A stretch of 64,000 nt of DNA from an uncultured bacterium (GCA_963977985.1 CAXBQH010000004.1:38686-102685), one strand, 5' to 3'; positions 1 to 64,000 are shown, counted from the first letter of the stretch. The notes: a model not told the origin generated them from the letters alone. Program-made: numbers and translations.

Positions 1-25
1 CATTTAATAAATAAATAAAATATCA

Positions 26-430
26 TTGGAACCTCTTTCTGCCCTAAAAAATCGTAAAAAATCTTCGGTCTTACAACTTACCCGCAGCTCAAAAATTTTC
101 AAAACAATTATACAAGCTATACAAGACAAAAAGGGTACAAATATTTTAAGTTTAGATTTAAAAAAGATTCCAGAGTCTACCAGTGATTTTTTTATTATTT
201 GTGAAGCCAATAATACCACCCAATTAAAAGCCATTGCTGATTTTGTTGAATTGGAAGTCAAAACTAAATGTGGTGAAATTCCTTATAAAAGTGAAGGAAA
301 AAATACAGCTCAATGGTTATTGATAGATTACATAAATATAGTCGTACACGTAATGCATCCTGAAGCAAGACGCTTTTATCAATTGGAAGATATGTGGAGT
401 GATGCAGATACTAAAATGCACGACCTTTAA
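26..430 (+). CDS. rsfS: Ribosome silencing factor RsfS (Iojap family)
   Basis: 134 aa from a TTG start; motifs IQDKKGTNILSLDL, DFFIICEA, WLLIDYINIVVHVM, RRFYQLEDMW. Confidence 0.93.
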   Translation: MEPLSALKNRKKSSVLQLTRSSKIFKTIIQAIQDKKGTNILSLDLKKIPESTSDFFIICEANNTTQLKAIADFVELEVKTKCGEIPYKSEGKNTAQWLLIDYINIVVHVMHPEARRFYQLEDMWSDADTKMHDL

Positions 431-467
431 ACCATTTATTAAAAAATTTGTTTATTAATAGTTACCG

Positions 468-2561
468 ATGATACCAGATAATAATAAGAAAAAAGGATCT
501 CCTTTGAACGATGGACCCAAAATGCCGAAATTTAATATTTATTGGATTTACGGATTAATAGCTATTTCCTTATTGTCTGCTCGTTTTTTTCAAACTGCTC
601 CCGATATTTTAACCACCACAGAACTTGAATTTAAACAAGTAATGTTAAGCGGAGGAGATGTAGAAAAAATTGACTTAATTCAAAATAAAGAATTGGTTCG
701 TGTGTATATCAAACCCGATAGTATTGATAAAGATTTTTATGTTCAAAAATTAAAACGCAAAATTGATAAATCAAAAATTAAAGGGGTGCCTTTATTTGAA
801 TTTAGTGTGACCGACTGGAATAGTTTTAATGAAAGACTTCAAAAATTTTATGAACAAAAAAATATTCAAGAAGTTCCTCAAAATGCAGTGAAGGAAGGAG
901 AGTGGTTTGGTCCTATTGCCAATACCATATTTTCTTTGGTGCTCATTGTTGTAGTTTGGATTTTACTTATGCGTAAGATGGGAGGAGGTTCTGGAAGTGG
1001 CGGTGGTCCTGGTGGCATATTTAATGTAGGAAAATCTAAAGCTACTTTATTTGAAAAAGGCGGCACTAAAGTAAATATAACTTTCGCTGATGTTGCAGGT
1101 TTAGAAGAAGCCAAAGAAGAAGTGATGGAAATTGTGGACTTCTTAAAACAACCCAAAAAATATACAGCCCTTGGAGGTAAAATTCCTAAAGGTGCATTAC
1201 TTGTGGGCCCGCCCGGTACAGGTAAAACTTTATTAGCAAAAGCTATGGCAGGAGAGGCGCAAGTACCTTTCTTTAGTTTAAGTGGATCCGATTTTGTGGA
1301 GATGTTTGTAGGTGTGGGTGCTAGTAGGGTTCGTGATTTATTTAAGCAAGCGCGTGAGAAAGCACCTTGTATAATTTTTATTGATGAGATTGATGCTATT
1401 GGTCGTGCTCGTGGAAAAAATGCGATGATGAGTAATGACGAAAGAGAAAATACTTTGAACCAATTATTGGTGGAGATGGATGGATTTGGTGGTGACACCG
1501 GTATTATTATATTGGCAGCTACCAATCGCCCCGATGTATTAGACTCTGCTTTATTAAGACCAGGTCGTTTCGATCGTCAAATTTCAATTGATCGTCCTGA
1601 TGTAAAAGGACGCGAAGAAATTTTTAAAGTGCATTTAGGTCCATTAAAGGTTTCAGAAAATTTAGATGTTCATAAATTGGCTGAACAAACACCAGGTTTT
1701 GCAGGTGCTGATATAGCTAATGTGTGTAATGAAGCGGCTTTAATTGCAGCTAGAAAAGGAAAGAGCGATGTAGAGATGAAAGATTTTCAAGACGCTATTG
1801 ACAGAGTTATTGGCGGCTTAGAAAAGAAAAATAAAATTATTTCAAAAGAAGAAAAAGAAGTGATTGCTTACCACGAAGCTGGTCACGCTATTTGTGGTTG
1901 GTTCTTAGAACACGCGTATCCTTTATTAAAAGTAACCATTGTTCCTAGAGGTACTGCTGCCTTGGGATATGCGCAGTATACACCCAAAGAGCAATACTTA
2001 TATACCATTGAACAATTAACTGATCAAATGTGTATGACACTTGGAGGTCGCGCGGCTGAACAAATTTTCTTTGGAAAAATATCTACCGGTGCCTCTAATG
2101 ATTTACAACAAATTACTAGAATGGCTTATTCTATGGTGACCACTTATGGAATGAACGATAAAATTGGTAATATAAGTTTCTACGATCCAAGTCAGGAAAA
2201 TGCTTTTCAAAAACCATTTAGTGAAGAGACGGGAAAAATAATTGATGAAGAAGTGCGTAAAATGATTGATGCTGCTTATCGCCGCACATTAGACTTGCTC
2301 ACTTTAAAGAAAGCAGAAGTAGAAAAATTAGCTAAAGAATTATTAGATAAAGAAGTTTTACATAAAAGTGATGTAGAAGCTTTAATTGGTAGAAGGCCTT
2401 ATGAAGAAGAAAAAGTAGTTAGTCTTGAAACAGAAGAAAAGACTGCGGAACAAAAAACTTCAGAAGTATCTGAAACTTCAAAAGATTCCGAAGCATCTGT
2501 AACTTCCGAAACTACAGCAAATTCTTCTTTTGACGCTTCACAAAATTCTACCACTACATAA
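468..2561 (+). CDS. ftsH: ATP-dependent zinc metalloprotease FtsH
   Basis: Two TM segments, Walker A GPPGTGKT, Walker [31 protein letters not shown], zinc motif HEAGH. Confidence 0.98.
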
Positions 2562-2591
2562 AACACTTTCCTAAGCTTAGAAATTATTTTG

Positions 2592-3233
2592 ATGCAATCA
2601 CAAGGAGCGAAAACTAAAATTTTACAAAAAATAAAACAAGCTTTAGAAAAGCCTGTGGCAGTTCCTTTTCCTGATCAAATTGCAGACAAACCCATTTTTA
2701 TTCCTACAGAACAAGAATTAGCTATTGGCTTTGCGCAAAAATTCACAGAATTATTAGGCAAGTTTGTTTATTGTAGCGACGAGGCAGAACTAGCTCAACA
2801 ATTAGGAAAACTTATACATTCCCAAAAATGGGAGAAAATTTATTCAAGGGAAACAGGATGGTTGGATGATATGAAAGAATTTAGTTTTGATCCTGTCACT
2901 ACCGATGATTTAGCTGGTTGCGATGCTGCCATAACTTTATGTGATCATTTAATTGCAAGAACAGGTACTATTGTACTTAGTAGTCAACAATTGAGTGGAA
3001 GAACTTCAAGTGTGTACGCACCTATTCATATTTGTATTGCTTATACGCATCAATTAGTTTTTGATCTGAGTGATAGTTTAGCCTCATTTAAAGCAGAATC
3101 AGATATGTTACCCTCTATGATTAGTTTTGCCACAGGTCCTAGTCGAACAGCCGATATCGAAAAAACTTTGGTGGTGGGGGTACACGGGCCCAAAGAAGTG
3201 TACTGTTTTTTAGTAGATAAGTTATTAGATTAG
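2592..3233 (+). CDS. LUD-domain protein (LutC/YkgG family)
   Basis: C-terminal FATGPSRTADIEKTLVVGVHGPKEV signature; ATG at 2592 (ORF track uses TTG at 2589). Confidence 0.88.
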   Translation: MQSQGAKTKILQKIKQALEKPVAVPFPDQIADKPIFIPTEQELAIGFAQKFTELLGKFVYCSDEAELAQQLGKLIHSQKWEKIYSRETGWLDDMKEFSFDPVTTDDLAGCDAAITLCDHLIARTGTIVLSSQQLSGRTSSVYAPIHICIAYTHQLVFDLSDSLASFKAESDMLPSMISFATGPSRTADIEKTLVVGVHGPKEVYCFLVDKLLD

Positions 3234-3276
3234 TAACTTTATTACAGCAACCTTCATCATTTAAATTATTTACTAC

Positions 3277-4056
3277 ATGCAATGGGTGCCAGGTAAAAAA
3301 ATTTATTTTCTATCAGATTTTCATTTAGGGGCCCCTAATGAAGAGCAAAGTCTTTTACGCGAAAAGAGAATTGTGCGTTTTTTACAAAATGCTAAAAAAG
3401 ACGCCGCTGCAATATTCATTGTAGGAGATATCTTCGATTTTTGGTTTGAATATGCTACTGTGGTTCCCAAAGGTTTTGTAAGACTTTTAGGATGTTTGGC
3501 CGATTTGTCTGATGCTCATATAGAGCTTCATATTTTTACAGGCAATCACGATTTATGGATGAAAAATTATTTCACCACTGAATTCAATGCCAAGGTTTAT
3601 TTCGAACCTCAAGTTTTTAATTTTGCACAGAAAAAGTTTTTTATAGGACACGGAGATGGATTAGGTCCGGGAGATAATGGCTATAAATTTTTAAAGAAAA
3701 TATTTACCAATCCTATATGCCAATGGCTGTTTGGATGGTTGCATCCAGATATGGGTATACCCATAGCGAATTACTTTAGTAGTAAAAGTAGGGCAAAGAC
3801 AGGCACTTCTGATGAAGTATTTATGGGAGAGGACAAAGAATGGTTAATAATATATTCAAAACAAAAAGTAAAAGAAATACCAGCAGATTATTTTATTTTT
3901 GGTCATAGACATTATCCATTAGATATTGCTATTAATGAAACGAGTCGATATATCAATTTAGGGGATTGGTTAAGAAGCAATACCTATGGTGTTTTTGATG
4001 GAAATACGATGCAATTAGTTGCTTGGAAAGAAGAGTCACCCATTAATAATGTATGA
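3277..4056 (+). CDS. lpxH: UDP-2,3-diacylglucosamine diphosphatase (LpxH-like metallophosphoesterase)
   Basis: Motifs SDFHLG, GDIFD, GNHD, HGDG, GHRH, INLGDW. Confidence 0.88.
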   Translation: MQWVPGKKIYFLSDFHLGAPNEEQSLLREKRIVRFLQNAKKDAAAIFIVGDIFDFWFEYATVVPKGFVRLLGCLADLSDAHIELHIFTGNHDLWMKNYFTTEFNAKVYFEPQVFNFAQKKFFIGHGDGLGPGDNGYKFLKKIFTNPICQWLFGWLHPDMGIPIANYFSSKSRAKTGTSDEVFMGEDKEWLIIYSKQKVKEIPADYFIFGHRHYPLDIAINETSRYINLGDWLRSNTYGVFDGNTMQLVAWKEESPINNV

Positions 4057-5117
4057 TGAATTTAGATGAACAATATTTAAATAATTCCTTACGCAGCTAT
4101 ATTATTATTGCTACCATATTTATAGTGTCATTGGTAGTGAAAAGGTTTATTTCTCGTTTTATTGCAAGCATCATTTATACTTGGATTGATAAAAAGAATC
4201 ATTCTGATTTAAGAAAAAGCCACGTTCACCGTCTGGTCATTCCTATTGAACAATTTTTAATTTATTTGGTAGCGGTAATAGCCCTCTATGAATTACATTT
4301 TCCTGCAGAGTGGAATATACATTTATACAAATTAACGCTTCAAGTGGTGGTTGAAGCGGTGGTGAAATTATTTTTTATTATTTTATTTATTCGTGTTTGT
4401 TTAAGAACACTCGAGTTTGTAGCAATAGTTTTAGAAGAAAAAGCCAAACTCACCAAAGATCAATCTGATGATCAGTTGGTATTATTTTTCAGAGATTTCT
4501 TTAAAGTAATTTTATACATCATTGGTTTTTTATTAATTCTACATTATGTATTTAATGAAAATATTGGCAATTTAGTTACCAGCTTAAGCATTGTGGGTGC
4601 CGCCGTGGCATTGTCTATGAGAGAGAGCTTGGAAAATATTATTGCTTCATTTATTATTTTCTTTGATAAGCCTTTTACCATTGGTGATTTAGTGAAAGTA
4701 AATAATTTTACAGGCACCATAGAAAAAATTGGTCTTAGAAGTACCCGCATTCGTACCCAAGATAAAACCTATATATCTGTGCCCAATAAGCAAATGGTAG
4801 ATACCATTGTAGATAATATAAGTTTAAGAACAGACCGAAAAATTGAATTAGACTTACAATTACACGTAACTACTTCTGCACAAGAATTGGCAGCTTTTAG
4901 TCAATATTTGAGAACCCAGTGCTCAGCGCTAGCTTCCGTTTCTAATGTAATGGTGTATGTTTCAGAGGCTGGAAAACAATTTCACATCTTACATATGGAA
5001 TGCTTGGTGAGTATGCAATTAAGCTTGCAAGAATTTTTAGCGTTGAAAGAAAAAATAAATGTGATGGCCATTAGCTATGCTAATGAAAATAAAATTTTAT
5101 TTGCCACTCAGGCTTAA
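4053..5117 (+). CDS. Small-conductance mechanosensitive channel (MscS family)
   Basis: Several TM helices followed by DKPFTIGDLVKV...GTIEKIGLRSTRIRT...VPN. Confidence 0.92.
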   Translation: MMNLDEQYLNNSLRSYIIIATIFIVSLVVKRFISRFIASIIYTWIDKKNHSDLRKSHVHRLVIPIEQFLIYLVAVIALYELHFPAEWNIHLYKLTLQVVVEAVVKLFFIILFIRVCLRTLEFVAIVLEEKAKLTKDQSDDQLVLFFRDFFKVILYIIGFLLILHYVFNENIGNLVTSLSIVGAAVALSMRESLENIIASFIIFFDKPFTIGDLVKVNNFTGTIEKIGLRSTRIRTQDKTYISVPNKQMVDTIVDNISLRTDRKIELDLQLHVTTSAQELAAFSQYLRTQCSALASVSNVMVYVSEAGKQFHILHMECLVSMQLSLQEFLALKEKINVMAISYANENKILFATQA

Positions 5118-5168
5118 ACTAATTTTATTAGTAGTGGTGCAAAGGACTATTACAACTATTGAAACTAT

Positions 5169-5750: not shown

Positions 5751-5824
5751 AGAACAAAGTTAGGGGACAATGAATAGCAACTAAGCTGGGTAAATGATTG
5801 GTGGATAAATTGTTAAGTATGACC

Positions 5825-5832
5825 TATTTTTG
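5825..5832 (+). promoter_or_regulatory. Bacteroidota -7 promoter element TAnnTTTG (TATTTTTG)
   Basis: Exact consensus in the divergent intergenic region, 3 nt before ATG 5836. Confidence 0.45.
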
Positions 5833-5835
5833 CGA

Positions 5836-6894: not shown

Positions 6895-6915
6895 GTTTCT
6901 TATGTAATTAATTTG

Positions 6916-6923
6916 TACTTTTG
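6916..6923 (+). promoter_or_regulatory. -7 promoter element TACTTTTG upstream of gldC
   Basis: Exact TAnnTTTG, 17 nt before ATG 6941. Confidence 0.55.
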
Positions 6924-6940
6924 TTGTTCAAATTTTTAAT

Positions 6941-7288: not shown

Positions 7289-7295
7289 TACAATT

Positions 7296-9189: not shown

Positions 9190-9849
9190 ATGCTTACACA
9201 TCAACTAGCTATCAAAGGTTTCCCTATGCTTCGTTTAGAAGATACTGCCTCATTTGTTTTACAGTGTATGGAAGATTATGAAGTACAACATTTACCTATT
9301 GTAAAAGATGATTATTTTATGGGCCTAGTTTCTAAAGAGTGGGTATTAGATATGGCCTTAGACCAGACAATGGCTCAAAGAGCAGATGAAATACTCCCTA
9401 TTGCAGTGAATGGAAAAGAACATTTCACTAAAGCTTTAGAATTGTTTTCTAAACACGAACTTTCTTTACTGCCTGTGTTAAATGACCAAAAAGAGTGTAT
9501 AGGTGTGATTACTCAGAAAATATTAAATGAAAACACTACTCGATTTATAGGGGCTGCACAAAATGGAGCCATTTTGGTACTTTCCATTTCACCTTATCAA
9601 TATTCTTTAGCAGAAATGAGCCGCTTGGTAGAAACTAATAATGCTCAAATATTACAATTAAATAGTTTATTTGATGAAACCACAGGGGCAATGATTATTA
9701 CGCTAAGAATTAATCAAGAAGAAGCTTCAGCTATTATTGCAACTTTTGAGCGTTATGATTATCAAGTGCTTCATTATTTTGGCAAATCGCCTATGCACAA
9801 TGATATAGAAAGTCATTACCATCATTTAATGAACTATTTAGATGTGTAA
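9190..9849 (+). CDS. CBS-pair protein with C-terminal ACT-like domain (AcuB-like)
   Basis: Two CBS repeats (HLPIV..GLVS; LLPVL...GVIT) followed by ILVLSI...YSLAEMSRLVETNNAQIL...ITLRIN. Confidence 0.8.
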   Translation: MLTHQLAIKGFPMLRLEDTASFVLQCMEDYEVQHLPIVKDDYFMGLVSKEWVLDMALDQTMAQRADEILPIAVNGKEHFTKALELFSKHELSLLPVLNDQKECIGVITQKILNENTTRFIGAAQNGAILVLSISPYQYSLAEMSRLVETNNAQILQLNSLFDETTGAMIITLRINQEEASAIIATFERYDYQVLHYFGKSPMHNDIESHYHHLMNYLDV

Positions 9850-11215
9850 TAAAGTAAAATTTGTATTCCTAGTATTTAATTTTTTAATTTTTTCCAATTT
9901 TGTTTCGGCGCAAATAAAAATTAGTTCCATTCAAATTGAAGGAAATAAAAAAACTAAATCCTATATTATTTTAAGAGAGTTGCCTTATCATCAAGGCGAT
10001 AATATTCCCAAAGACTCTTTAGCTATTTTAGATACTACCGCAGAACAACAATTATTTAATACTGCTTTATTTGAACAAGTAAGTGTTCGTTCGCAATTTA
10101 TTGATAGTGCCCAAGTGCTTATTAAAATAAAAGTAAGTGAAAGATGGTATTTATTTCCCATACCTTATTTTAGATGGGTAGACCGAAATTTTAATCAATG
10201 GTGGAATGAACAAAATAGAAGTTTAGATAGAGTGAATTATGGAGTAAGTGTAAGGCAGGCCAATGTTTCAGGTAACAATGATAAACTCACCGCTGCTTTT
10301 ATAACGGGCTATACTCAACAATCTTTGCTTAGATATCAAATACCTTTTATTGATAAAAAATTACGATATGGAGTATCTTTTGGTTGGCAAAGTTTTACTC
10401 AAAAAGAAATAAATATTGCTACTCAATTAGATAAACAAATTTTTTATAAAACGCAAGATATCATTCAAAAAGGATACAGAACTAATGCTACTGTTTTGTA
10501 TCGACCTAATTTATATGAAAGGTATAGTTTTCAAGCAGGCTTTGGTAAAAATGAAATTAGCGATTCTGCTTTTTTAATGCAACCTTCTTTTTTACCCAGC
10601 CTTCAAAAAACATTTTCATATGTGGAAGCTGCTGTTTCTTATACCCAACTACATTTCGATTATAATGCGTATCCCACCAAGGGGCAGTCCACCGACATTT
10701 CTTGGTATCAAAGATTTTCTAAAAATAGTAATCTCACTTCGCTTCAATTAAGAAAAATATGGGCCCGGCCTTTTTCTAAAAATAATTTTGTTTTGTTGGA
10801 ATCTAATTCTTTGGTAAAATTTTTACCGAATAATAATTATACCGATAATAAATTATTAGGCTATGGTAATTTACAAATGAGCGGGTTGGAATATTATGTT
10901 GTAGAGGGAAATGCCGCTTCTATTTTTAAAGCCTCTTGGCAGCACTCTTTAGGAACTATGAATGTGAAAAATTTAATTTTGAAAAAAAGACTGCCATTTA
11001 TAAAATATCAATTTTGGGTAAAAGCATTTACACAATTGGGTTATGTGTATAATGAGCAGCCGCAAGCTGGGAATCGACTTACGAATACGCTACTAAGAAC
11101 AGCGGGTATAGGTATGGATATTATTAGTATTTATGATTTTGTCTTAAAAATTGATTATAGCTTGAATCAGCTTGGGAACAAAGGTTTATATTTGCACGGA
11201 GCCTTTAATTTTTAA
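9842..11215 (+). CDS. Omp85-superfamily outer membrane protein with one POTRA domain
   Basis: Signal peptide ending VSA-Q; POTRA ISSIQIEGNKKTKSYIILREL; VSERWYLFPIP; beta-barrel ending in Phe (HGAFNF). Confidence 0.82.
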   Translation: MCNKVKFVFLVFNFLIFSNFVSAQIKISSIQIEGNKKTKSYIILRELPYHQGDNIPKDSLAILDTTAEQQLFNTALFEQVSVRSQFIDSAQVLIKIKVSERWYLFPIPYFRWVDRNFNQWWNEQNRSLDRVNYGVSVRQANVSGNNDKLTAAFITGYTQQSLLRYQIPFIDKKLRYGVSFGWQSFTQKEINIATQLDKQIFYKTQDIIQKGYRTNATVLYRPNLYERYSFQAGFGKNEISDSAFLMQPSFLPSLQKTFSYVEAAVSYTQLHFDYNAYPTKGQSTDISWYQRFSKNSNLTSLQLRKIWARPFSKNNFVLLESNSLVKFLPNNNYTDNKLLGYGNLQMSGLEYYVVEGNAASIFKASWQHSLGTMNVKNLILKKRLPFIKYQFWVKAFTQLGYVYNEQPQAGNRLTNTLLRTAGIGMDIISIYDFVLKIDYSLNQLGNKGLYLHGAFNF

Positions 11216-12916: not shown

Positions 12917-12942
12917 GCTAGTTATTTTCATATTTTCGCACC

Positions 12943-13692
12943 ATGGAAAACCTGGATCTAAGCAAGTTGCCCCAACATATAGCTATCATAATGGACGGGA
13001 ATGGGAGATGGGCACAAGAACAAGGCCAGGATCGTTTATTTGGTCATTATCAAGGGGTTATAAGTGTAAGAAAAGTAGTGGAAGCGGCTACTGAAATTGG
13101 AATTCAATACCTTACCCTTTATGCTTTTAGCACAGAAAACTGGGAAAGGCCCCAGGAGGAAGTAACAGGTCTAATGACCTTATTTGTTGATACTATTGCC
13201 AAGGAAGTACCTGATTTACATAAAAACAACATCAAACTTCGCTTTATTGGTAATTTAAATTTACTACCCCCTCACGCAAAACAAGCCCTAGAAAACGCCA
13301 CTGCTCAAACAGCTCAAAATACAGGACTCACCCTAATAGTAGCCCTAAGTTATAGCAGTCGATGGGAATTAGTGGAAGCCACAAAAAATATAGCCACTAA
13401 AGTACAACAAGGTACCCTGCAAGTGGATCAAATAACAGAAGCGACATTGTCTGAATCCCTTGCTACCAAAGACTTTCCCGATCCTGAATTAATGATTCGT
13501 ACTAGTGGGGAATATCGTATTAGTAATTTTTTATTATACCAATTGGCCTATGCAGAATTGTATTTTAGTGATATAAGATGGCCAGAATTTAGAAAAGAAG
13601 ATCTAGTAAAAGCCATTGTAGAATTCCAATCCAGAGAGCGTAGATTTGGCAAAACCAGTGGTCAAATTCAATTGAATGAAGAAAAAAAATAA
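12943..13692 (+). CDS. uppS: Undecaprenyl diphosphate synthase
   Basis: HIAIIMDGNGRWA, YAFSTENW, DPELMIRTSGEYRISNFLL, RERRFG. Confidence 0.97.
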   Translation: MENLDLSKLPQHIAIIMDGNGRWAQEQGQDRLFGHYQGVISVRKVVEAATEIGIQYLTLYAFSTENWERPQEEVTGLMTLFVDTIAKEVPDLHKNNIKLRFIGNLNLLPPHAKQALENATAQTAQNTGLTLIVALSYSSRWELVEATKNIATKVQQGTLQVDQITEATLSESLATKDFPDPELMIRTSGEYRISNFLLYQLAYAELYFSDIRWPEFRKEDLVKAIVEFQSRERRFGKTSGQIQLNEEKK

Positions 13693-13782: not shown

Positions 13783-16521
13783 ATGCATAAATTCCTCCTT
13801 TTTTTTATAGGGTCAGTATTGGTTCTTTTATTGAATTCGACTTCTTATGCCCAGGACGCCCCTGCTAAAGATTCGGTGTCTCAAATTAATGTTAAACTGA
13901 TCAATATTTTTAACCAAAAAACACCTTCTAAATATAAAATTCGAAACATCAAAGTAGTGGGTAATGAAAATTTTGATGAGAACTTATTGCTATCCCTTTC
14001 TACTTTAAATATAGGAGATGAAGTTACCATTCCAGGGGGCGATAATTTTGCAAAGTCTATCCACAAATTAATGGATCAAAATTATTTTAGTGATGTAAGT
14101 ATTTATTTGACAGATTTAGTGGGCAAAGAAATTGATGTTGAAATTAATGTTACTGAAAGACCCCGACTTTCTAAGTTTACTTTTTTAGGGGTAAAAAAAT
14201 CGGATATAGATGAATTGTCTGGTAAAACTGGCTTAACGCCTAATAGGGTCATTACTGATAATATGAAAATTACTGCTATTGATGGTATTAAAAAATATTA
14301 TGCAGAAAAAGGTTTTCAGGATATTAAAGTAACTATTAAAGAGCGTAAAGACCCTGCCAGAAAAAATAATTTATTATTAGATTTTGTAATTGACAAAGGA
14401 CCTAAAGTAAGAATTAACAATATAAATTTTGGTGGGAATAAAGTGGACGAGACAAAGCTTAAAAAAAGTTTGAAAGAAATTCACGAAAAATCCAGAATGA
14501 CTTTATTTCCTATTAACGATAAGCCCATCATTGTTAAAACAAATCCTTATACTTTCGAAGAATATATGTCTGAAAAGGGTTTTTTAACTTTTACGAAAAC
14601 AAGAAAAATTTTAAATCCCTACATTAGACTCTCTCTTTCTTCTGCCAAGTTCAATGAAAAAAAATATGAAGAGAGTAAAGAAAATTTATTGAATTATTAC
14701 AATTCATTAGGTTTTAGAGACGCTGTTATTGAAAAAGATACCGTGTATCATAATGCAGGTGGCAATTTAAATATAGATGTACAATTAAAGGAAGGTCATA
14801 AATATTATTTTGGAAATATTAATTGGAGAGGGAATACCAAATATTCAGATTCAATTTTATCTGTTATTTTAAATATTAAGAAAGGAGAGATTTATAATAG
14901 AGAAACTTTATTTAACAAATTAGGTAAAACACCCACAGCAGAAGGGGGAGATGTAAGCGCCTTGTACCAAGATGATGGTTATTTATTTTTCAGAGTAGAT
15001 CCAGTGGAAACCGCTGTATATAATGATACCATAGATTTTGAAATTAGAGTGGTGGAAGGTCCGCAAGCAACTATTAAAACAATTCGTATTGCTGGTAACG
15101 AAAAAACAAAAGACTTTGTTATTCGTCGTGAGATTAGAACGATACCTGGAGATAAATTTAGTCGTAACTTATTAATTAGATCACAACGAGAGATAGCTCA
15201 ATTAAATTTCTTTGACCAAGAAAAAATAAAAATTGATCCCGTGCCTAATCCAGAGGATGGTACCGTTGACATTAATTATGGGGTGGAAGAAAAATCGAGT
15301 GATCAGTTAGAGTTGAGTGCTGGATGGGGCGGTTATATTGGACTTACAGGAACTTTGGGTGTTACTTTTAATAATTTTAGTTCTAAAAATTTATTTAAAA
15401 GACAAGCCTGGGATCCACTTCCAATGGGGGATGGACAAAAATTAAGTGTAAGGGTACAGAGTAATGGTAAAGCTTTTAGATCTACGAACTTTTCATTTAC
15501 GGAACCTTGGTTTGGTGGTATTAAAAGAAATACTTTAACCTTCAGTGTTTACAATACTAAGTATGGTCAAACTTATAATTTATTGACTGGTATGTATGAT
15601 CCCAATGCTGCTGACTCAAGATATATTTCTACCACTGGTGCCACAGTATCATTTGGTAGACAGTTAGCTTGGCCTGATGATTATTTTTCATTGAGTTTGG
15701 GATTGAACTATACTAGATATACATTGAAAGATTATGCTATTGACCCCTACAATCTTCCGAATTTTAATAATGGAGTGGTAAACAATATTAACTTTAGAAT
15801 TGCTCTACAAAGAACTTCTATAGACCAACCTTTGTTTCCAAGAACTGGATCTACCTTCTTATTGAGTGCACAATTAACGCCTCCTTATTCTTTAATTACT
15901 CCTAATGTAAATAGTGCCGCTAATCCTTTTGAATTATTAGAGTATCACAAATGGAGATTCAATGGAGAGTGGTTTGTGCCCTTAGGAAAGCCTGCAGGAG
16001 CAGATCATAATAAACAATTTGTATTAAGATTTGCAGCTAAATATGGATTCTTAGGTGCTTATAATAGTGATTTACCCATTTCTCCTTTTGAGCGTTTCCA
16101 AGTAGGAGATGCTGGATTAAGTAATCAGTTTGCTTTGTTAGGATATGATATTATTGCACATAGAGGTTATCCAGTATATGAAAGCTCTAATCCAAAAGTT
16201 AACCCCGATCAACAAACTGCAAGACAACATTTCACCATTTTTAATAAATACGCGGTAGAAGTTCGTTATCCTTTAAGTTTAGCGGCAAGCAGTACCATTT
16301 ATGCCTTAGGATTTTTTGAAGCAGCCAATGGTTGGTATAGTATGAAAGAATATAATCCCTTTAACTTAAGGCGTTCGGTGGGTATTGGAATGCGTTTTTA
16401 TCTACCTATGTTTGGATTGTTAGGATTTGATTATGGTATTGGTATTGATAGACTTAATGCCACCAACACATTGAAAGATGCAGGAAGATTTACCTTTATG
16501 CTTGGCTTTGAGCCAGAATAA
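13783..16521 (+). CDS. bamA: Outer membrane protein assembly factor BamA
   Basis: 912 aa with multiple POTRA domains (GNEKTKDFVIRREIR), LRRSVGIGMRFYLPMFGLLGFDYG; adjacent to skp. Confidence 0.96.
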   Translation: MHKFLLFFIGSVLVLLLNSTSYAQDAPAKDSVSQINVKLINIFNQKTPSKYKIRNIKVVGNENFDENLLLSLSTLNIGDEVTIPGGDNFAKSIHKLMDQNYFSDVSIYLTDLVGKEIDVEINVTERPRLSKFTFLGVKKSDIDELSGKTGLTPNRVITDNMKITAIDGIKKYYAEKGFQDIKVTIKERKDPARKNNLLLDFVIDKGPKVRINNINFGGNKVDETKLKKSLKEIHEKSRMTLFPINDKPIIVKTNPYTFEEYMSEKGFLTFTKTRKILNPYIRLSLSSAKFNEKKYEESKENLLNYYNSLGFRDAVIEKDTVYHNAGGNLNIDVQLKEGHKYYFGNINWRGNTKYSDSILSVILNIKKGEIYNRETLFNKLGKTPTAEGGDVSALYQDDGYLFFRVDPVETAVYNDTIDFEIRVVEGPQATIKTIRIAGNEKTKDFVIRREIRTIPGDKFSRNLLIRSQREIAQLNFFDQEKIKIDPVPNPEDGTVDINYGVEEKSSDQLELSAGWGGYIGLTGTLGVTFNNFSSKNLFKRQAWDPLPMGDGQKLSVRVQSNGKAFRSTNFSFTEPWFGGIKRNTLTFSVYNTKYGQTYNLLTGMYDPNAADSRYISTTGATVSFGRQLAWPDDYFSLSLGLNYTRYTLKDYAIDPYNLPNFNNGVVNNINFRIALQRTSIDQPLFPRTGSTFLLSAQLTPPYSLITPNVNSAANPFELLEYHKWRFNGEWFVPLGKPAGADHNKQFVLRFAAKYGFLGAYNSDLPISPFERFQVGDAGLSNQFALLGYDIIAHRGYPVYESSNPKVNPDQQTARQHFTIFNKYAVEVRYPLSLAASSTIYALGFFEAANGWYSMKEYNPFNLRRSVGIGMRFYLPMFGLLGFDYGIGIDRLNATNTLKDAGRFTFMLGFEPE

Positions 16522-27895: not shown

Positions 27896-28750
27896 ATGAA
27901 TAATTCAAGAAGAAAATTTTTGCGTCAAAGCGCTTTAGCAGGGGCAGCTTTCAGCTTGCCTTTTGGAAAAGAATTAATGGCAATGGCTGGAAAATCAAAA
28001 GCGATAGGTATTCAATTATGGACCGTAAAACAAGCTTTATATAAAGATACGCTGGGAGTGCTTAAACATTTATCTAAATGTGGGTATAAACAAATTGAAG
28101 GATTTGAAGGTGATTTAGGTATTTTTTGGGGTATGAAAAATACTGAATTGAAAAAAGTGTTAGATGATTTGGGAATGAAAATGGTTTCTTCTCATTGTAA
28201 CAACACCCAAGATTTTGAAAGAAAAGCAGCACAAGCAGCAGAGATAGGTATGAAGTATTTAATTTGTCCTCATAAAGGAGCACAAAAATCGATTGATAAT
28301 TTTAAGCGCTTCTCTGATGAGTTTAATGCTTGTGGTGAAATAACCAAGAAAAATGGTTTACGATTTGCATATCACAACCACGATTATTCATTTGTACCAA
28401 TGAATGGAATTGTACCACAGGATTTAATGATGCAATCTACTAATCCTGATACTGTAGATTTTGAAATGGATATGTACTGGACAGTAGCAGCAGGAGTAGA
28501 TCCTATTGGATATATGAAAAAATTCCCGAATCGTTTTAAGTTAGTGCATGTAAAAGATTTAGCTAAAACTTCTACTGGCATTGAATCTTGTATTATTGGA
28601 AAGGGAACTATTAATTATAAGTCTTTATTACCACAGGCAGCCGCACAGGGCGTACAATATTATATTGTTGAGCAAGAAGCGTATACTGGCACTTCAGAAT
28701 TAGATTGTGCTAAAGAGGATGCTGCTTATTTAAAAACACTTCAATGGTAA
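27896..28750 (+). CDS. Tat-exported sugar phosphate isomerase/epimerase TIM barrel
   Basis: SRRKFLRQ signal; GIQLWTV, YHNHDYSF, EMDMYW, HVKD, IVEQE. Confidence 0.88.
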   Translation: MNNSRRKFLRQSALAGAAFSLPFGKELMAMAGKSKAIGIQLWTVKQALYKDTLGVLKHLSKCGYKQIEGFEGDLGIFWGMKNTELKKVLDDLGMKMVSSHCNNTQDFERKAAQAAEIGMKYLICPHKGAQKSIDNFKRFSDEFNACGEITKKNGLRFAYHNHDYSFVPMNGIVPQDLMMQSTNPDTVDFEMDMYWTVAAGVDPIGYMKKFPNRFKLVHVKDLAKTSTGIESCIIGKGTINYKSLLPQAAAQGVQYYIVEQEAYTGTSELDCAKEDAAYLKTLQW

Positions 28751-45695: not shown

Positions 45696-47240
45696 TTACC
45701 TAGCGGGCATATTTAAAGGAATATCTCTTTTAAGCATATCATCTCTTTGGGCAATTTCACAAGCAGTATGAAATACCATAGACACTCTTTTTTGCATTAG
45801 ATCAAAATTAATTTTTTCTATAGTATCGCTGGGTTGGTGGTAATCGGCTAATAACATACCATCATAGAAAAATAAAATAGGTACACCTTTTTTTGCAAAA
45901 TTATAATGGTCGCTACGGTAGTAAATTCTATTTTTATCGTTAGGATCGTCGTATTTGTAATCTAAAGTGATATTGCTAGAAGCTTTATTGGCAGCTTCAT
46001 TAATAACTACTAAATCAGAGCTTAATTTATCGTGACCTATCACATATACATAATTAAGGGTATCTCCTAAATGTCTTTCAGTGTCCACACGACCTACCAT
46101 ATCAGTATTTAAATCTGCAGTTGTTTTATCTAAAGGAAACAATGGATGTTCTGAATAATAATCAGAACCCCATAGCCCTTTTTCCTCTCCACTCACCGTC
46201 ATAAATACGATGGTTCTACGAGGTTTAAAACCTTTTTTGGCAGCTGTTGAAAATGCTTCAGCCATTTGCATTACGCTCACTGTTCCTGAACCATCATCAT
46301 CTGCGCCATAATAAATAACATCACCTCTTTTGCCTAAATGATCATAGTGGCCAGTAAGCATTAGATATTCTTCTTTTTTATCGGTGCCTGGTAATACTGC
46401 CACAACATTACTGCTTTCTAAATTTTCAGTGGTTTTACTTACGCTGATACTTGCCTCAGTTGCATAATTACCTTTTTTTAATTCTTTGATAGAAGAAAGA
46501 GTACTAGCGCTATTGCCTAATAAAGCGGCTGCTAATTCAATAGAAACATTGGCCATTAAAAAACCTGGGTTGAGATTAGCTTTTACATACATATTTCCTT
46601 TAATAGGTGTTGGATTTTTGCGAGGGAAATCGGCAGATACAATAAATAAACCTGCGGCTCCTTTGGTGCTTGCCTGTCTTTGTTTGGCCATAGGAGAGGC
46701 AGGATTAGCAAAAAATGCACGATTGCCTCCTGGTCCCATTGTTACTGGTCCTGTGCTGGTACCTTCTATAACAACTACCATTTTTCCTTTCACTTCTAAA
46801 TTTTCATAATCGTTAATTCCTTTTTCAGCATCTACTATTCCATATCCAGCAAATACTACTTCTTTAAAATTAGCATTACCATTAGCAATGGTTTGTAAAT
46901 TAAAATTGAAGTCTTTGTCCCATTCAAATGAACGACCACCTACAGTGAATTTTTTTTCAGCCAAAATATCTTGATACACTGGATACACTTGTTGATAGCT
47001 ATTGCCATTTCCAGGTAATAATCCCATTCTTTTAAACTCTGATTCAATGTAAGCAGCAGCGCGTTTTTGTCCGGGTGATGCTGTTTCTCGACCTTCCATT
47101 TCAGCACTCGCAATAATAGAAAGCTTTTCTTTTAATGCTTTAGCGGTGATTACATTGGCAAATGGTGTGAGCTCTTTTGATTTTTGAGCAAAAGACATTG
47201 TGCTCATAAGAAGCAAAGAAATTCCAAGTAGTTTTTTCAT
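45696..47240 (-). CDS. Secreted M28 family aminopeptidase with PA domain
   Basis: Signal peptide SFA-Q; GHYDH, GADDDGSG, SGEEKGLWGS, NTDMVGR, RSDH, YHQPSD. Confidence 0.92.
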   Translation of the reverse strand: MKKLLGISLLLMSTMSFAQKSKELTPFANVITAKALKEKLSIIASAEMEGRETASPGQKRAAAYIESEFKRMGLLPGNGNSYQQVYPVYQDILAEKKFTVGGRSFEWDKDFNFNLQTIANGNANFKEVVFAGYGIVDAEKGINDYENLEVKGKMVVVIEGTSTGPVTMGPGGNRAFFANPASPMAKQRQASTKGAAGLFIVSADFPRKNPTPIKGNMYVKANLNPGFLMANVSIELAAALLGNSASTLSSIKELKKGNYATEASISVSKTTENLESSNVVAVLPGTDKKEEYLMLTGHYDHLGKRGDVIYYGADDDGSGTVSVMQMAEAFSTAAKKGFKPRRTIVFMTVSGEEKGLWGSDYYSEHPLFPLDKTTADLNTDMVGRVDTERHLGDTLNYVYVIGHDKLSSDLVVINEAANKASSNITLDYKYDDPNDKNRIYYRSDHYNFAKKGVPILFFYDGMLLADYHQPSDTIEKINFDLMQKRVSMVFHTACEIAQRDDMLKRDIPLNMPAR

Positions 47241-47257: not shown

Positions 47258-47713
47258 TTAAGCGCAAGTGATTTTGTTGACTCTATTTTCATGTCTACCT
47301 CCTTCAAAAGCGGTAGTCATAAATTTCTCTATCATTTCAAAACTTAATTCCATACTCACAAAACGAGCAGGGATACAAATAATATTGGCATTATTGTGTA
47401 ATCGAACAAGTTCGGCAACTTCTGTATTCCAACATAGACCTGCTCTTATTCCTGCGTGCTTATTAGCAGTCATTGCAACCCCATTAGCACTGCCACAAAA
47501 TAAAATTCCAAAGCAAGCTTCTCCCTTTTCTACACTACTGGAGGTTGGGTGTGCGTAGTCGGGGTAGTCCACTGAATCGCTGTTATAAGTACCAAAGTCC
47601 TTTGTGCTATAGCCTTTTTCCTCGAGCCATTTTTTAGTAGCATTTTTATAATCGATACCTGCGTGATCTGCACCAATAGCTATGGGTTTGGAAGCATCAA
47701 ATACAAATGACAT
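47258..47713 (-). CDS. rpiB: Ribose-5-phosphate isomerase B
   Basis: IGADHAG, VDYPD, CGSANG, RLHNNAN, FEGGRH. Confidence 0.95.
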   Translation of the reverse strand: MSFVFDASKPIAIGADHAGIDYKNATKKWLEEKGYSTKDFGTYNSDSVDYPDYAHPTSSSVEKGEACFGILFCGSANGVAMTANKHAGIRAGLCWNTEVAELVRLHNNANIICIPARFVSMELSFEMIEKFMTTAFEGGRHENRVNKITCA

Positions 47714-56295: not shown

Positions 56296-56327
56296 AGATG
56301 TTTTTTTAAAGTTTTAAAACGATATAA

Positions 56328-56335
56328 CAAATTTA
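56328..56335 (-). promoter_or_regulatory. -7 promoter element TAAATTTG for hup
   Basis: CAAATTTA on the + strand, 32 nt upstream of the ATG. Confidence 0.6.
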
Positions 56336-56857: not shown

Positions 56858-56875
56858 TCCTTTTTATTATAAATA

Positions 56876-57643: not shown

Positions 57644-57648
57644 TTTAT

Positions 57649-59037: not shown

Positions 59038-59140
59038 AATTATTACAAAATATTAAGTCAAATTTAGTTTATTTAATGTACTAAGCTTGAATATTTATTT
59101 TAACTTCATTTATAGAAATTGTTAAAAAGTAGAAGAACTT

Positions 59141-59878
59141 ATGAAATCAGTAGCTAAGCAAAGAATTATTCCAGCATTTAAACAATTTGACTTAGAAGGT
59201 CCCAAGCCTAGGGTCAATGAATTTTTATTTGCGCTTCAAATTTTTGTTGAATTTATCAAAGGATTTAGAACCTTACATTTCGTAGGTCCTAGTGTCACCG
59301 TTTTTGGCTCTGCAAGATTTGATGAAAATCATAAGTATTATAAAATGGCAAGAGAAATGGGCAAGCGTATTGCTCAATTGGGTTTTACTACTATGACTGG
59401 AGGAGGCCCTGGCATTATGGAGGCAGCGAATAGAGGTGCTTTTGAAAATTCAGGACATTCTGTGGGTTGTAATATAAAATTGCCTTTTGAACAATCACCT
59501 AATCCCTACACACAAACTTCTATTACTTTTTCTTATTTTTTTATTCGAAAAGTTTTATTGGTAAAATATTCTTATGCTTTTATTATTATGCCTGGTGGTT
59601 TTGGTACCCAAGATGAATTTTTTGAAACTTTGACTTTAGCACAAACGAAAGTCATCAATGATTTTCCCATTGTGGTGATGGGTAAAGAATATTACGAACC
59701 GTTTCATCAATGGGTAGATCAAATGATAGCAGCAGGCACCATTGGACAGGAGGATAAAAAATTTATGTTATTTACGGATAGTGTGGATGAAGCTATGGAA
59801 CACATAAGTAAATATGTTCGTAAAAATTATACAGTCAAACCAAGAAAGCGCTTATGGTGGTTATTTGAAAAAGTATAA
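59141..59878 (+). CDS. TIGR00730/LOG family Rossmann-fold nucleosidase
   Basis: VFGSAR, TGGGPGIMEAANRGA, FFIRK, PGGFGTQDE. Confidence 0.92.
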   Translation: MKSVAKQRIIPAFKQFDLEGPKPRVNEFLFALQIFVEFIKGFRTLHFVGPSVTVFGSARFDENHKYYKMAREMGKRIAQLGFTTMTGGGPGIMEAANRGAFENSGHSVGCNIKLPFEQSPNPYTQTSITFSYFFIRKVLLVKYSYAFIIMPGGFGTQDEFFETLTLAQTKVINDFPIVVMGKEYYEPFHQWVDQMIAAGTIGQEDKKFMLFTDSVDEAMEHISKYVRKNYTVKPRKRLWWLFEKV

Positions 59879-59898
59879 AATAGAAACCATTTTTATAT

Positions 59899-62610
59899 TT
59901 AATCTAGCACAGGTTGTAACCATCTAGTGATATACTCCAAAGGCTTATTTTTTCTTTGCGTATAATCTAGTACTTGATCTTGACTAATTTTACCCACTCC
60001 AAAATATTGACTTTGTGGATGAGCAAAATACCAACCACAAACACTAGAAGCTGGATACATAGCAAGGCTCTCTGTTAATTGAATACCTGTATTTTTTTCT
60101 GTTTCTAATAAATCAAATAAAGTATATTTTTCTGTGTGGTCTGGGCAGGCGGGGTAACCAGGTGCTGGGCGAATACCTACATATTGTTCCTCAATCAAAG
60201 AAGCATTTGTTAAATTTTCATCGGGAGCATAGCCCCAATACTCTTTTCTAGTTTTAGTGTGTAAATATTCTGCAAAAGCTTCTGCAAGTCGGTCGGCTAA
60301 AGCTTGCAAGATAATTTTGTTATAATCGTCTAAGTTTTCTTCAAATTTTTTGATATGCTTTTCAATACCGTGAATGGTCACTGCAAAAGCACCTATATAA
60401 TCTTCTTTATTTTCAGTAGCAGGGCAAATAAAATCGGCCAATGAAAAATTAGGTTGACCCGCAGTTTTTTTAGCTTGCTGTCTTAAAAAATGTAAAGCAA
60501 TTTTATCTTTTCCTTGTTGCACAAGCACATCGTCATTCTCTGCACTCGCTGGCCAGAAACCTACAACACCTTTGGCGCTTAACCATTTTTGTTCAATAAT
60601 TTGTGTGAGTAGTTTTTGTGCATCACTATATAATTTAGAAGCCACTTCTCCTACCACCGAATCGGTTAAGATAGCTGGAAAATTTCCGTGTAATTCCCAA
60701 GCAATAAAAAAAGGTTTCCAATCGATATAATCCACTAGTACCGATAGATTGTCTAACTCTATAGCTTTGTTGCCTGTAAATTGGGGCTTTACTGCTTTAA
60801 AATTTTTCCAATCAATGGCCACTTTATTTTCTAAGGCTTCTTTATAGCTAAGAGATTGTTTGGTTGTTTTTTTATTGTCAAAGTCGTTTTTTAAGGCCGC
60901 ATATGTTTTTTCTAAATCTTGTAAGAAGGGAGCTTTTTGATCTTTATTTAATAAAGAGCCTGCTACTGTTACACTTCTAGAAGCATCTAAAACGTGTATT
61001 ACCCCTTCACTATATTCGGGTGCAATCTTAACAGCTGTATGCATTCGAGAAGTAGTGGCTCCACCAATCATTAGTGGCATTGTCATACCTCTTCTTTTCA
61101 TTTCTTTGGCGATGTAAACCATTTCATCTAAAGAAGGTGTAATTAAACCACTGAGTCCAATAATATCAACCTGATGTTGCTGTGCTTGCTCTAAAATTTT
61201 ATCTGCAGGCACCATTACTCCTAAATCTATAATTTCATAACCATTACATCCCAATACTACACTCACAATATTTTTTCCAATATCGTGTACATCTCCTTTT
61301 ACAGTAGCTAATAAAATTTTAGCAGGGCCCTTGCTGGGTCCTTCAGCGTTTACGGAAACTAATTTCTTTTTTTCTTTTTCTGCTTCAATGAAGGGCGTTA
61401 AAAAAGCAACACTTTTTTTCATTACCCTTGCACTTTTTACCACCTGAGGTAAAAACATTTTTCCCGCTCCAAATAAATCACCCACCTGATTCATACCTGC
61501 CATTAGTGGACCTTCAATGACTTCTAAGGGTTCACTGTATTTTAATCTTGCTTCTTCTGTATCTGCTTCAATAAAATCGGTAATACCATTAATTAAAGAA
61601 TGTGCTAATCTTTCTTCAACGGATGTTTCTCTCCAAGCGGCACTTTTTACTTCTATTTTTCCTTTGGCTTTTACAGTATCAGCATATTGTATCAAAGCTT
61701 CAGTGGCTTCATTATTGCTATTATTTCTATTGAGTATGACATCCTCACATAAATTTCTTAAAGTGGGCTCAATTTCATCATACACTTCTAATTGACCAGC
61801 ATTGACAATGCCCATATCCATACCTGCTTTCACTGCGTGGTATAAAAATACAGCGTGGATAGCTTCTCTTACAGTATCGTTTCCTCTAAAGGAGAAAGAA
61901 ACATTTGAAACGCCACCACTTACTTTAGCCAAGGGCAATGTTTGTTTAATGACTCTGGTAGCTTCAATAAAATCAACTGCATAATTATTATGTTCTTCAA
62001 TGCCTGTAGCAATAGCAAAAATATTGGGATCAAATATGATGTCTTGAGGATTAAATCCTACTTGTTCTACTAAAATTTTATAGGCCCTAGTACATATTTG
62101 AATTTTACGATCCTTGGTATCGGCTTGACCTATTTCATCAAATGCCATTACAATAACTGCAGCCCCAAATGCTTTGCAGATATATGCCTGTTCAATAAAT
62201 TTGGCTTCTCCCTCTTTCATTGAAATGGAATTCACAATACATTTTCCTTGAACACATTTTAATCCCGCTTCAATGATTTCAAATTTAGAACTATCAATCA
62301 TAATGGGAATCTTGGCAATATCGGGTTCGCTTTGTACTAAATTTAAAAAAGTAGTCATAGCTTTTACGCCCTCTAGTAAAGCATCATCCATATTCACATC
62401 AATAATTTGAGCACCATTTTCAACTTGCTGTCTTGCTACCGATAATGCTTCTTCATATTTGTTCTCTCGAATTAATCTGGCGAATTTTTTAGAACCTGTT
62501 ACATTGGTTCTTTCTCCTACATTGACAAAATTGGTTTCAGGACGAATGACTAAGGGTTCTAATCCTGATAATCTTAAGTAAGGTTTAATATGTATTATTT
62601 CTTCACTCAT
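59899..62610 (-). CDS. metH: B12-dependent methionine synthase, C-terminal part (pterin-binding, cobalamin-binding and reactivation domains)
   Basis: [56 protein letters not shown]. Confidence 0.96.
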
Positions 62611-62612
62611 AA

Positions 62613-63626
62613 TTAAATAGTTGGATCTAGTATAGGAATAGAACGGGGTACTAGATTTTTTACACTTTCAGCAATATGTTTGATATGATCAGGGGTGGTA
62701 CCGCAACAGCCACCTACAATATTTACAAATTTACTTTTAGCCCATTGCTCAATGAAATGAGCTGTTTGAGGAGGCTCTTCATCATATTCTCCCATTGCAT
62801 TGGGAAGTCCCGCATTGGGATAAGCCGAAGTATAACAAGTGGCTATTTGAGAAAGTTCTTCAATATGGCTGCGCATTTCTTTAGCACCTAAAGCACAGTT
62901 TAAACCCACACTTAAAGGTTTTGCGTGTTCCACAGAAGTATAAAAAGCGGCTAAGGTTTGACCACTTAAAGTTCTACCAGAAGCATCGGTAATAGTGCCA
63001 CTTATCATCATTGGTAATTCAGGCCTACCTTCTTTTCTACAAAATTCTTTCACTGCATAAATGGCTGCTTTGGCATTCAAGGTATCAAAAATGGTTTCAA
63101 TTAAAATCACATCCACGCCTGCATCTATGAGTCCGCGAATTTGTTCGGTATAAGCGGCAACCACTTCATCAAAACTAACGGCACGATAACCAGGGTTGTT
63201 TACATCCGGTGATAAGCTTAGCGTTTTATTCAAAGGTCCAATGGAGCCAGCAATATATTTTTCTGTGGCGTTGGGATATTTGCTTTGATACTGTTCAATT
63301 GCTGCCCTTACACATTTTACAGCTGCTACATTCAGTTCATATGCCAATGATTGCATATTATAATCTGCCATAGCAATTGAAGTGCTACTAAAAGTATTGG
63401 TTTCAATAATATCGGCCCCTGCTTCTAAATACTGTAAATGAATTCCAGTAATGATGTCGGGTTGAGTAATACACAATAAATCGTTATTGCCTTTGAGGTC
63501 AGTAGGCCAATCAGCAAAACGGTCACCGCGGTAATCGGCTTCAGTTAATTTATGGCGCTGAATCATAGTACCCATAGCACCATCTATGACCAATATTCTT
63601 TTTTTGAGCGTCTCTTGAATTGACAT
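62613..63626 (-). CDS. Methionine synthase N-terminal homocysteine S-methyltransferase domain (separate gene)
   Basis: DGAMGT, ETNTF, ETIFD, GLNC, PNAGLP, GGCCGT; start ATG 63626 or 63644. Confidence 0.95.
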
Positions 63627-63708
63627 AAATAAATTTTTATGCATACATCCAAAAGAAATCGGAGTAACTAATAATACTATTGAAAAAAAGGGGAGGGTAA
63701 ATAGTATG

Positions 63709-63769
63709 GTTTATTAGTTCTTTTTTTTCCTTTCGGAAGGCAGGTTGAACAATAAACAAATCCACCTGC
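63709..63769 (-). ncRNA. Putative SAM-II/SAM-V-type riboswitch (H-type pseudoknot) upstream of the metH operon
   Basis: Minus strand: P1 GCAGGU/ACCUGC; loop GAUUU; loop GUUUAUU-GUUC pairs with 3' GAAC-U-AAUAAAC with one bulged U; located 5' of Met-synthesis genes and just after a promoter. Confidence 0.72.
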
Positions 63770-63779
63770 AATGCAGATG

Positions 63780-63811
63780 CAAAGTTAATACACTATTGTT
63801 TTACAGCCAAA
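63780..63811 (-). promoter_or_regulatory. Full Bacteroidota promoter: TTTG-N20-TAACTTTG
   Basis: -33 element at 63808-63811, -7 element at 63780-63787, 20-nt spacer. Confidence 0.75.
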
Positions 63812-63840
63812 TAATGCTTGCAGTATGAAACTAAAGTGGT

Positions 63841-64000
63841 TTAAGGATAAGTAGCTTTAATATCTACATTAATTTTATCTGCCACCATCTTAATAAGCAA
63901 TCCGCCTATATTAAAGTCCTTTAAAGTCACTGTAAATTGAGCAGTGGCAGTGGGAATCCCATTTTTAATTTCTATCACTGCGTTGGTTTGAAGGGATTTA
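63841..64000 (-). CDS. C-terminal end of a gene truncated by the window edge, probably YceI-like
   Basis: Manual translation ...KSLQTNAVIEIKNGIPTATAQFTVTLKDFNIGGLLIKMVADKINVDIKATYP*. Confidence 0.6.
   Translation of the reverse strand, partial: KSLQTNAVIEIKNGIPTATAQFTVTLKDFNIGGLLIKMVADKINVDIKATYP

Follow-up and report, generated by a model that had tools for sequence, protein, structure and literature searches.

The question raised by the 64,000-nucleotide stretch of DNA analysed here, which spans positions 38686-102685 of contig C4 (CAXBQH010000004.1) from an uncultured bacterium and is referred to below as the window, is why the four-base palindrome CATG is almost absent from it, and what agent is responsible. 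A preliminary description of the window had claimed that CATG is avoided throughout by means of codon choice, and had attributed this to long coexistence with a CATG-directed restriction-modification (R-M) or modification system whose genes lie outside the window. The contig belongs to a metagenome-assembled genome (MAG; assembly G000) of 55 contigs and 2.03 Mb, with a GC content of 33.7% and rated 99.58% complete, of which about 80 contig ends are unjoined. Relationships of its BamA protein place the organism among freshwater Sediminibacterium-like Chitinophagaceae. Analysis of the window and of the whole assembly showed that about 97% of CATG sites have been removed from the genome through silent codon changes. 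The genome of this species is, or was until very recently, subject to purifying selection that removes CATG from double-stranded DNA and, with less force, ACGT.

Exactly four CATG sites were found in the window (starting at positions 3276, 12942, 28547 and 47290), compared with 204 expected from base composition, close to the rough figure of 200 proposed previously, and 184 expected under a second-order Markov model (observed/expected 0.022). Synonymous codons were also permuted within each gene, keeping both the amino-acid sequence and the codon usage of the gene, and this shuffle gave 112.4±8.7 sites and, in 20 runs, never fewer than 96. As the avoidance has itself moulded the codon usage that is permuted, the codon-shuffle null errs on the conservative side. 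Other words occur freely in the window, as had been noted, with GATC (136 observed, 141 expected), CTAG (124, 177) and TGCA (301, 320) near expectation. The avoidance claimed in the preliminary description was thus confirmed for the window, and found to be stronger than claimed.

The same was observed across the genome, where 179 CATG sites were counted against 5684 expected under the Markov model (ratio 0.031) and 3368±38 expected from codon shuffling of 1,734 non-overlapping open reading frames (ORFs) covering 93% of the genome (ratio 0.053, z = -84). CATG has the lowest ratio of observed to expected of all 256 tetranucleotides, followed by ACGT (0.21), while the third-lowest word stands at 0.65 and the other 14 palindromes of four bases range from 0.67 to 1.04. 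Neither of the two outcomes named beforehand as contrary to avoidance, a ratio near 1 or an equal depletion of all palindromes, was therefore seen. Among words of five and six bases none was strongly depleted, the only one below 0.5 being ACGTC (0.40), which contains ACGT. Depletion of CATG is even across all 55 contigs and extends to intergenic DNA (22 sites against 187 expected, ratio 0.12).

The means of removal was apparent from codon context. When the next base is A, C or T, 79-85% of histidine codons are CAT, but when it is G the share falls to 2.1% (54 CAT against 2502 CAC genome-wide; 2 against 89 in the window), as the preliminary description had proposed. Its claim that NCA codons are shunned before TG at alanine, proline and threonine was likewise upheld, NCA making up 28.7% of NCN codons overall and 0.5% of those before TG (0 of 89 in the window). 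A third context behaves in the same manner, with NNC making up 22.5% of NNY codons overall and 0.8% of those before ATG (0 of 185 in the window). Silent removal is possible in each of the three reading frames, by CAT-G to CAC-G, NCA-TGN to NCT-TGN or NCC-TGN, and NNC-ATG to NNT-ATG, and the three frames were found to be purged to an equal degree. Among the examples of histidine codons cited previously, CACGAC at 419, CACGAA at 1872 and CACGAT at 3547 were found as given, with CACGGA starting at 3649, one base earlier than given.

Alignment of 6.7 kb of the window with eight relatives identified what stands in this genome where relatives have CATG, namely CTTG (12 cases), TATG (11), CACG (7), CCTG (6), AATG, CAAG, CAGG and others. 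Replacements involve each of the four positions of the word, chosen by what is silent in the frame concerned. This synonymous, frame-appropriate removal at four positions indicates selection on double-stranded DNA, rather than an artefact or a one-way mutation bias. An artefact of sequencing, assembly or binning might be suspected of a MAG in 55 contigs, the more so as the remaining CATG sites are 6 times as dense in the outermost 2.5 kb of contigs (described below). An artefact cannot, though, swap in synonymous codons suited to each frame while proteins stay 92-94% identical to those of relatives, the depletion is uniform over the contigs, and the enrichment at their ends reflects foreign or variable DNA at break points; this explanation is barely credible and was rejected. 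Directional mutation or repair bias, whether by deamination of methylated cytosine or by short-patch repair of the Vsr type, would suit a genome that is somewhat poor in CG, a dinucleotide contained in ACGT. Such a bias would be expected to act in one direction, but CATA and TATG are not the sole products, and NNC-ATG (silent only by C to T at position 1) and CAT-G (silent by T to C at position 3) have been cleared to the same extent. As neither a cytosine-C5 methyltransferase nor a Vsr-like motif was found in the genome, and the products are diverse and frame-specific, this explanation was also rejected as highly unlikely.

The two most depleted of the 256 words are both palindromes, for which the chance is about 0.004, and this indicates a reader of double-stranded DNA. 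Selection at the level of RNA, in which CAUG and ACGU would be shunned in transcripts owing to a sequence-specific ribonuclease or to spurious translation starts, has to be considered here, as nearly the entire genome is transcribed and, for palindromes, depletion of the sense strand inside genes is indistinguishable from depletion at the DNA level. Only ATG preceded by C is shunned, however, and GATG has the highest over-representation of any tetranucleotide (1.48), so that spurious AUG starts are not the cause. Intergenic DNA is depleted too, the abundant ribosomal RNAs (rRNAs) retain CATG, and the palindromy of both words would be left unexplained by a reader of single strands. An RNA-level cause was accordingly judged very improbable. 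The depletion bears the signature of restriction pressure, being specific to palindromes, symmetric between strands, synonymous in three frames and also present between genes.

The second word, ACGT, was found 19 times in the window against 64.7 expected (0.29), and 429 times in the genome against 2000 expected (0.21 by the Markov model and 0.17 by codon shuffle, z = -69). Depletion of ACGT differs among members of the same genus, lying mostly at 0.15-0.35 on a proxy-type scale (of the kind described below for CATG) on which this genome scores 0.076, and one congener (G028) goes further, at 0.036. An 11.2-kb freshwater phage contig (L314; IMGVR_UViG_3300042542_001535), kin of the phage-derived genes at the end of contig C5, carries no ACGT where 14.8 were expected and has normal CATG, and GATC is about 2-fold depleted in several phage contigs related to the same genes. 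These phages suggest that the lake communities contain active restriction aimed at ACGT and GATC.

The four surviving sites of the window were examined individually, a previous list of three, given as non-exhaustive, having been correct for 3276, 12942 and 28547 and having missed the fourth at 47290. The first (3276-3279, plus strand, C4:41961; TTTACTACATGCAATGG) supplies the ATG start codon of an ORF of 259 amino acids at 3277-4056. The second (12942-12945, plus strand, C4:51627) likewise contains the called start of an ORF of 249 amino acids at 12943-13692, and is kept in six of eight aligned relatives (CACCATGGAA); the earlier observation that two of the listed sites lie at start codons was therefore borne out, these being two of the four in the window. 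The third (28547-28550, plus strand) lies in frame 0 inside the ORF at 27896-28750, where GTG CAT GTA places a histidine CAT codon before G, one of only two such cases in the window. The fourth (47290-47293, minus strand) is situated 50 bp upstream of the start of a peptidase gene (45696-47240, minus strand), within an ORF of 151 amino acids of uncertain status.

Across the genome, 87 of the 179 CATG sites lie less than 2.5 kb from a contig end and 92 further inside, giving a density of 0.33 per kb near the ends against 0.05 per kb in the interior, a 6-fold difference that decays over about 2 kb. Residual interior sites are spaced about 20 kb apart on average. Clustering at start codons, which had been raised as a possibility for the remaining sites, holds for part of them: up to 34 of the 92 interior sites are at called or possible start codons, with about 58 unconstrained, and others lie in the rRNA operon, in sequence resembling transfer RNA (tRNA) and in DNA that appears acquired. 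Even at starts, ATG is preceded by C less often than by any other base (30 of 1,375). Survivors are therefore mainly found where change is constrained (rRNA, tRNA, starts) or where the DNA seems to have arrived recently, as would be expected if native DNA has been purged to the limit of constraint and incoming DNA has not yet been purged.

Contig ends with clusters of CATG were found to stop in atypical genes, namely a phage-like block, an integrase, low-GC islands, a second recJ-like gene and the rRNA operon, and the enrichment of CATG at ends is explained by foreign or variable DNA at the points where assembly breaks. Overlaps between contig ends were identified for 15 pairs, with 95-100% identity over 68-365 bp (for example the start of C4 with the end of C46, C13 with C42, and C47 with C48; the contig of the window overlaps both C46 and C10), and in these pairs both copies are without CATG in 2.5 kb. 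The MAG combines co-assembled strain variants that differ by about 3-5%, and many of its contigs are actually adjacent. A search of contig ends for repeats or insertion sequence elements, as a CATG-targeting mobile element might leave, found none, the ends overlapping one another at 95-100% identity. That CATG-rich ends could be chimeras with a congener was unsupported at the one end tested, the recJ-like end of contig C7 being at most 71% identical to any congener.

Contig C5 terminates in phage-derived genes (C5:79507-81939) in which the density of CATG is normal. The C-terminal third of a protein of 446 amino acids encoded there is 51-77% identical to proteins on freshwater IMG/VR contigs, some of which are about 160 kb in length. 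CATG is normal in the IMG/VR phages related to this end, which therefore give no sign of active CATG restriction, and no viral relatives of the contig-end integrase were found. An ORF at the start of contig C21 (C21:233-2503) looks chimeric, with a RecB/UvrD-like N-terminal half that is rich in Q and A and holds five CATG sites, and a C-terminal half that is AT-rich and of low complexity.

The distribution of the trait among relatives was determined using CATGRRRR as a countable proxy for CATG, with the reversed pattern as a control. This genome scores 0.036 (33 against 929), while scores of 0.87-3.6, all normal, were obtained for the 280 other species in its GTDB genus. Among 400 Bacteroidota genomes sampled evenly across 179 genera, no other value fell below 0.30, and the depletion described here is about 8-fold deeper than the lowest of the 680 other Bacteroidota genomes sampled. 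CATG was also normal in all of 160 loci around the BamA orthologue, 80 from GTDB genomes and 80 from metagenomes (pooled, 3732 sites against 4708 expected in 1.56 Mb, 0.79). Moderate depletion, with proxy values of 0.3-0.5, was seen in a few other families of Bacteroidota (f55, f62), where a weaker CATG-directed pressure may operate. The trait is confined to one species, the sole case among 281 species of the genus.

The nearest known relatives share 92-94% of BamA amino acids, and no relative or conspecific contig closer than 94% was returned; a search for identical proteins likewise gave no match. At four-fold degenerate sites of the gene, the same relatives are 51-56% different, a Jukes-Cantor distance of 0.87-1.03. 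The species thus occupies a long branch, whose length gave CATG ample time to be purged. The earlier claim of a long coexistence with the responsible system is plausible in light of this branch, but it had been made for a lineage, and the trait belongs to one species.

How recently the pressure operated can be judged from the sites that have not returned. At about 20,000 positions in the genome a single synonymous or non-coding substitution would create CATG, and about 67 new sites would be expected per 1% of neutral divergence. With only about 58 unconstrained interior sites present, these counts lead us to infer that the pressure is current or ended less than about 1% of neutral divergence ago. 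An occupancy of 2-5% corresponds to a 2Nes of about 3-4 per site in our own calculation of a two-state balance of mutation, selection and drift, and under this model the fitness cost per site need only be minute.

The assembly was then searched for genes of an R-M system. The whole assembly, searched with profiles in six frames, yielded no DNA methyltransferase of the D12, N6_N4, N6_Mtase or C5 families (PF02086, PF01555, PF02384, PF00145), although these searches do find matches in control genomes and relatives (for D12, in 6 control genomes and 5 relatives of other genera). A nuclease of the NlaIII/IceA1 family (PF05315) gave no match at E <= 10 in the whole assembly. Proteins with the motif (D/N/S)PP(Y/F/W/H), identified by regular expression, were only TrmN, PrmC and unrelated enzymes. 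PADLOC, applied to 823 cytoplasmic proteins that lack a P-loop and have 150-650 amino acids, identified no restriction, modification or Type IV protein, among 25 of the 38 matching families in the case of the first batch (a fifth of the proteome), for which matches at E 7e-8 to 1e-5 would go unseen. Proteins shorter than 150 or longer than 650 amino acids, or with a P-loop, signal or membrane segment, were covered by the six-frame Pfam searches only. The single 'REase_II' model that was matched in PADLOC is generic, matching all 14 control genomes, and corresponded here to Nth and to MutY, whose gene is divided between contigs C37 and C51. The assembly thus encodes no recognisable R-M system, and the homologues of a CATG-specific methyltransferase or endonuclease that the preliminary description had anticipated were not found. 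To our knowledge, a free-living bacterium without any DNA methyltransferase of the major families is uncommon.

We consider it probable that a Type II system specific for CATG exerts, or until very recently exerted, restriction-type selection, its genes being either in unassembled flexible DNA or very recently lost. A Type II restriction endonuclease specific for CATG would occasionally cut chromosomal sites that are transiently unprotected, imposing a small fitness cost on each site, and in a large freshwater population even rare self-restriction could suffice. A second system with ACGT specificity would account for the weaker depletion of that word. It is quite possible that the R-M genes reside in flexible or plasmid DNA that failed to assemble or bin. 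Their loss within the last ~1% of neutral divergence is a less likely course, weighted below unassembled DNA because the period in which a relic would remain undecayed is narrow and because no relative shares the trait.

Avoidance of recognition sites has been tied to orthodox Type II R-M systems, lost ones included, and avoidance in a genome without the system has been read as the trace of a lost one (Rusinov et al. 2015, PMC4687349). In genomes encoding no R-M system, only 0.7% of site-genome pairs were under-represented in that survey (PMC4687349). The part of the earlier claim that concerns an agent is thus in keeping with the restriction-like signature, while the part placing a system elsewhere in the genome met with no methyltransferase, nuclease or PADLOC R-M match in an assembly that is 99.6% complete. 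Several points weigh against restriction by a Type II system of the organism's own. The negative searches described above, for four methyltransferase families and an NlaIII/IceA1 nuclease in the assembly and for R-M or Type IV proteins among the 823 scanned, are the first of these. Two R-M systems, one for CATG and one for ACGT, must both be missing from the assembly. A system long resident throughout the species should lie in the core genome, a part that assembles well. Lastly, no relative carries the avoidance of CATG, so the support that related genomes lend to the identification of a lost system is lacking.

These points leave room for an agent that has no methylase or that is not an R-M system at all, which is overall unlikely. 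There is a slim prospect that the chromosome is guarded from a CATG nuclease, whether encoded by the bacterium and of an unrecognised family or introduced by phages or competitors, by erasure of the word and not by methylation. In the first form, the bacterium would possess a CATG nuclease of an unrecognised family with no methyltransferase, and its chromosome would be safe through the near-absence of sites, with roughly 60-90 leftover sites tolerated by an enzyme that is weak or needs two sites near each other. Restriction nucleases are highly diverse and often not recognisable from sequence. With this would agree the absence of DNA methyltransferase matches in the assembly, a depletion about 8-fold below that of any of the 680 other Bacteroidota genomes, and the wide average spacing of interior sites. 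No nuclease candidate was found, however, and the 92 interior sites, including those in apparently recently acquired genes, would be cut. A cutter of a 4-bp word could not, moreover, be acquired without a methylase in a genome with about 5,700 sites, so that a methylase stage would be needed anyway, and the only precedent known to us for a solitary cutter without a methylase is that of 8-bp rare cutters such as PacI. A resident nuclease of this kind was considered quite improbable.

The second form is a non-resident agent, either a nuclease from dominant phages or competitors, or a CATG-targeting recombinase or mobile element, acting at a very small cost per site. The selection needed is tiny (2Nes about 3-4) and no R-M genes were found in the assembly. 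The variation of ACGT avoidance among congeners, together with its presence in the phage contig L314, indicates that nucleases directed at 4-bp words circulate in the habitat. An external agent would nevertheless have to be species-specific, since 280 congeners, many from like lakes, are without depletion of CATG, and no repeated mobile element was present in the assembly. Damage by a phage nuclease, furthermore, would not be lessened stepwise as sites vanish, and would therefore offer no gradual selective path. A non-resident agent was likewise regarded as improbable, and restriction by a Type II system of the species was retained as the favoured explanation.

Avoidance of palindromes in prokaryotic genomes owing to Type II R-M is reportedly of long standing in the literature, and is said to have been described by Gelfand and Koonin in 1997 and by Rocha in 2001. 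The phenomenon is well known, and the present case is unusually extreme, restricted to one species and without detectable R-M genes. CATG is recognised by NlaIII and HpyI (iceA1-hpyIM) of Neisseria and Helicobacter, and ACGT by MaeII and HpyCH4IV, so the recognition words of these enzymes are the two words avoided here. Unlike in NlaIII/HpyI, neither a D12-class methylase nor an NlaIII/IceA1 nuclease was detected in the assembly, and unlike in MaeII/HpyCH4IV, no C5 methylase was found there for ACGT. The case does not belong to the NlaIII/HpyI gene family, both defining proteins having been looked for and not found; that it works in the manner of an NlaIII/HpyI system is the leading, though unproven, interpretation. 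PacI is a solitary 8-bp cutter whose host has neither a methylase nor sites, the sites being naturally absent. Protection by absence of sites instead of methylation would be shared with PacI, whereas here the word is of 4 bp, about 5,700 expected copies have been actively purged, about 90 interior copies are left, and no nuclease gene was found.

Orthodox Type II avoidance (PMC4687349) is resembled in that the word is a short palindromic restriction target, in that its loss is synonymous, and in that only one or two words are affected. The depth of 0.02-0.05, however, lies far under the threshold of 0.78 applied in the survey, and no cognate R-M genes were found here. Traces of lost systems (PMC4687349) are similar in that a site is avoided though no matching system is found in the genome, but in those cases relatives usually share the avoidance or encode the system, whereas here none of the 280 congeners shares it. 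The missing regain of sites, unlike in those traces, limits any loss to the last ~1% of neutral divergence.

The gene content of the window is otherwise ordinary, including BamA, FtsH and MetH. A full-length BamA of 912 amino acids (13783-16521) and a barrel-only paralogue of 457 amino acids (9842-11215), both of the Omp85 family, are encoded by genes separated by 2.5 kb. A MetH-like ORF on the minus strand (59899-62610) matches only positions 337-1230 of MetH, and the adjacent upstream ORF (62613-63644, 343 amino acids, minus strand) probably supplies the N-terminal homocysteine-binding part, so that methionine synthase is apparently split within 59899-63644.

The genome described here is among the cleanest natural cases in which a single 4-bp word has been recoded out of an entire cellular genome, down to about 2-5% of expectation. 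As an effect on a single branch, with hundreds of normal congeners as controls, it offers a direct estimate of the strength of selection per site. It also provides a barcode, as a CATG-free contig of at least 5 kb at about 34% GC almost certainly comes from this organism, by which its missing flexible genome may be recruited. Should the methyltransferase-free state be confirmed in a closed genome, the case would test whether self-protection can rest on the erasure of sites in place of methylation. If protection by erasure were true, a bacterium without any DNA methyltransferase would exhibit 'restriction without modification' at a 4-bp site.

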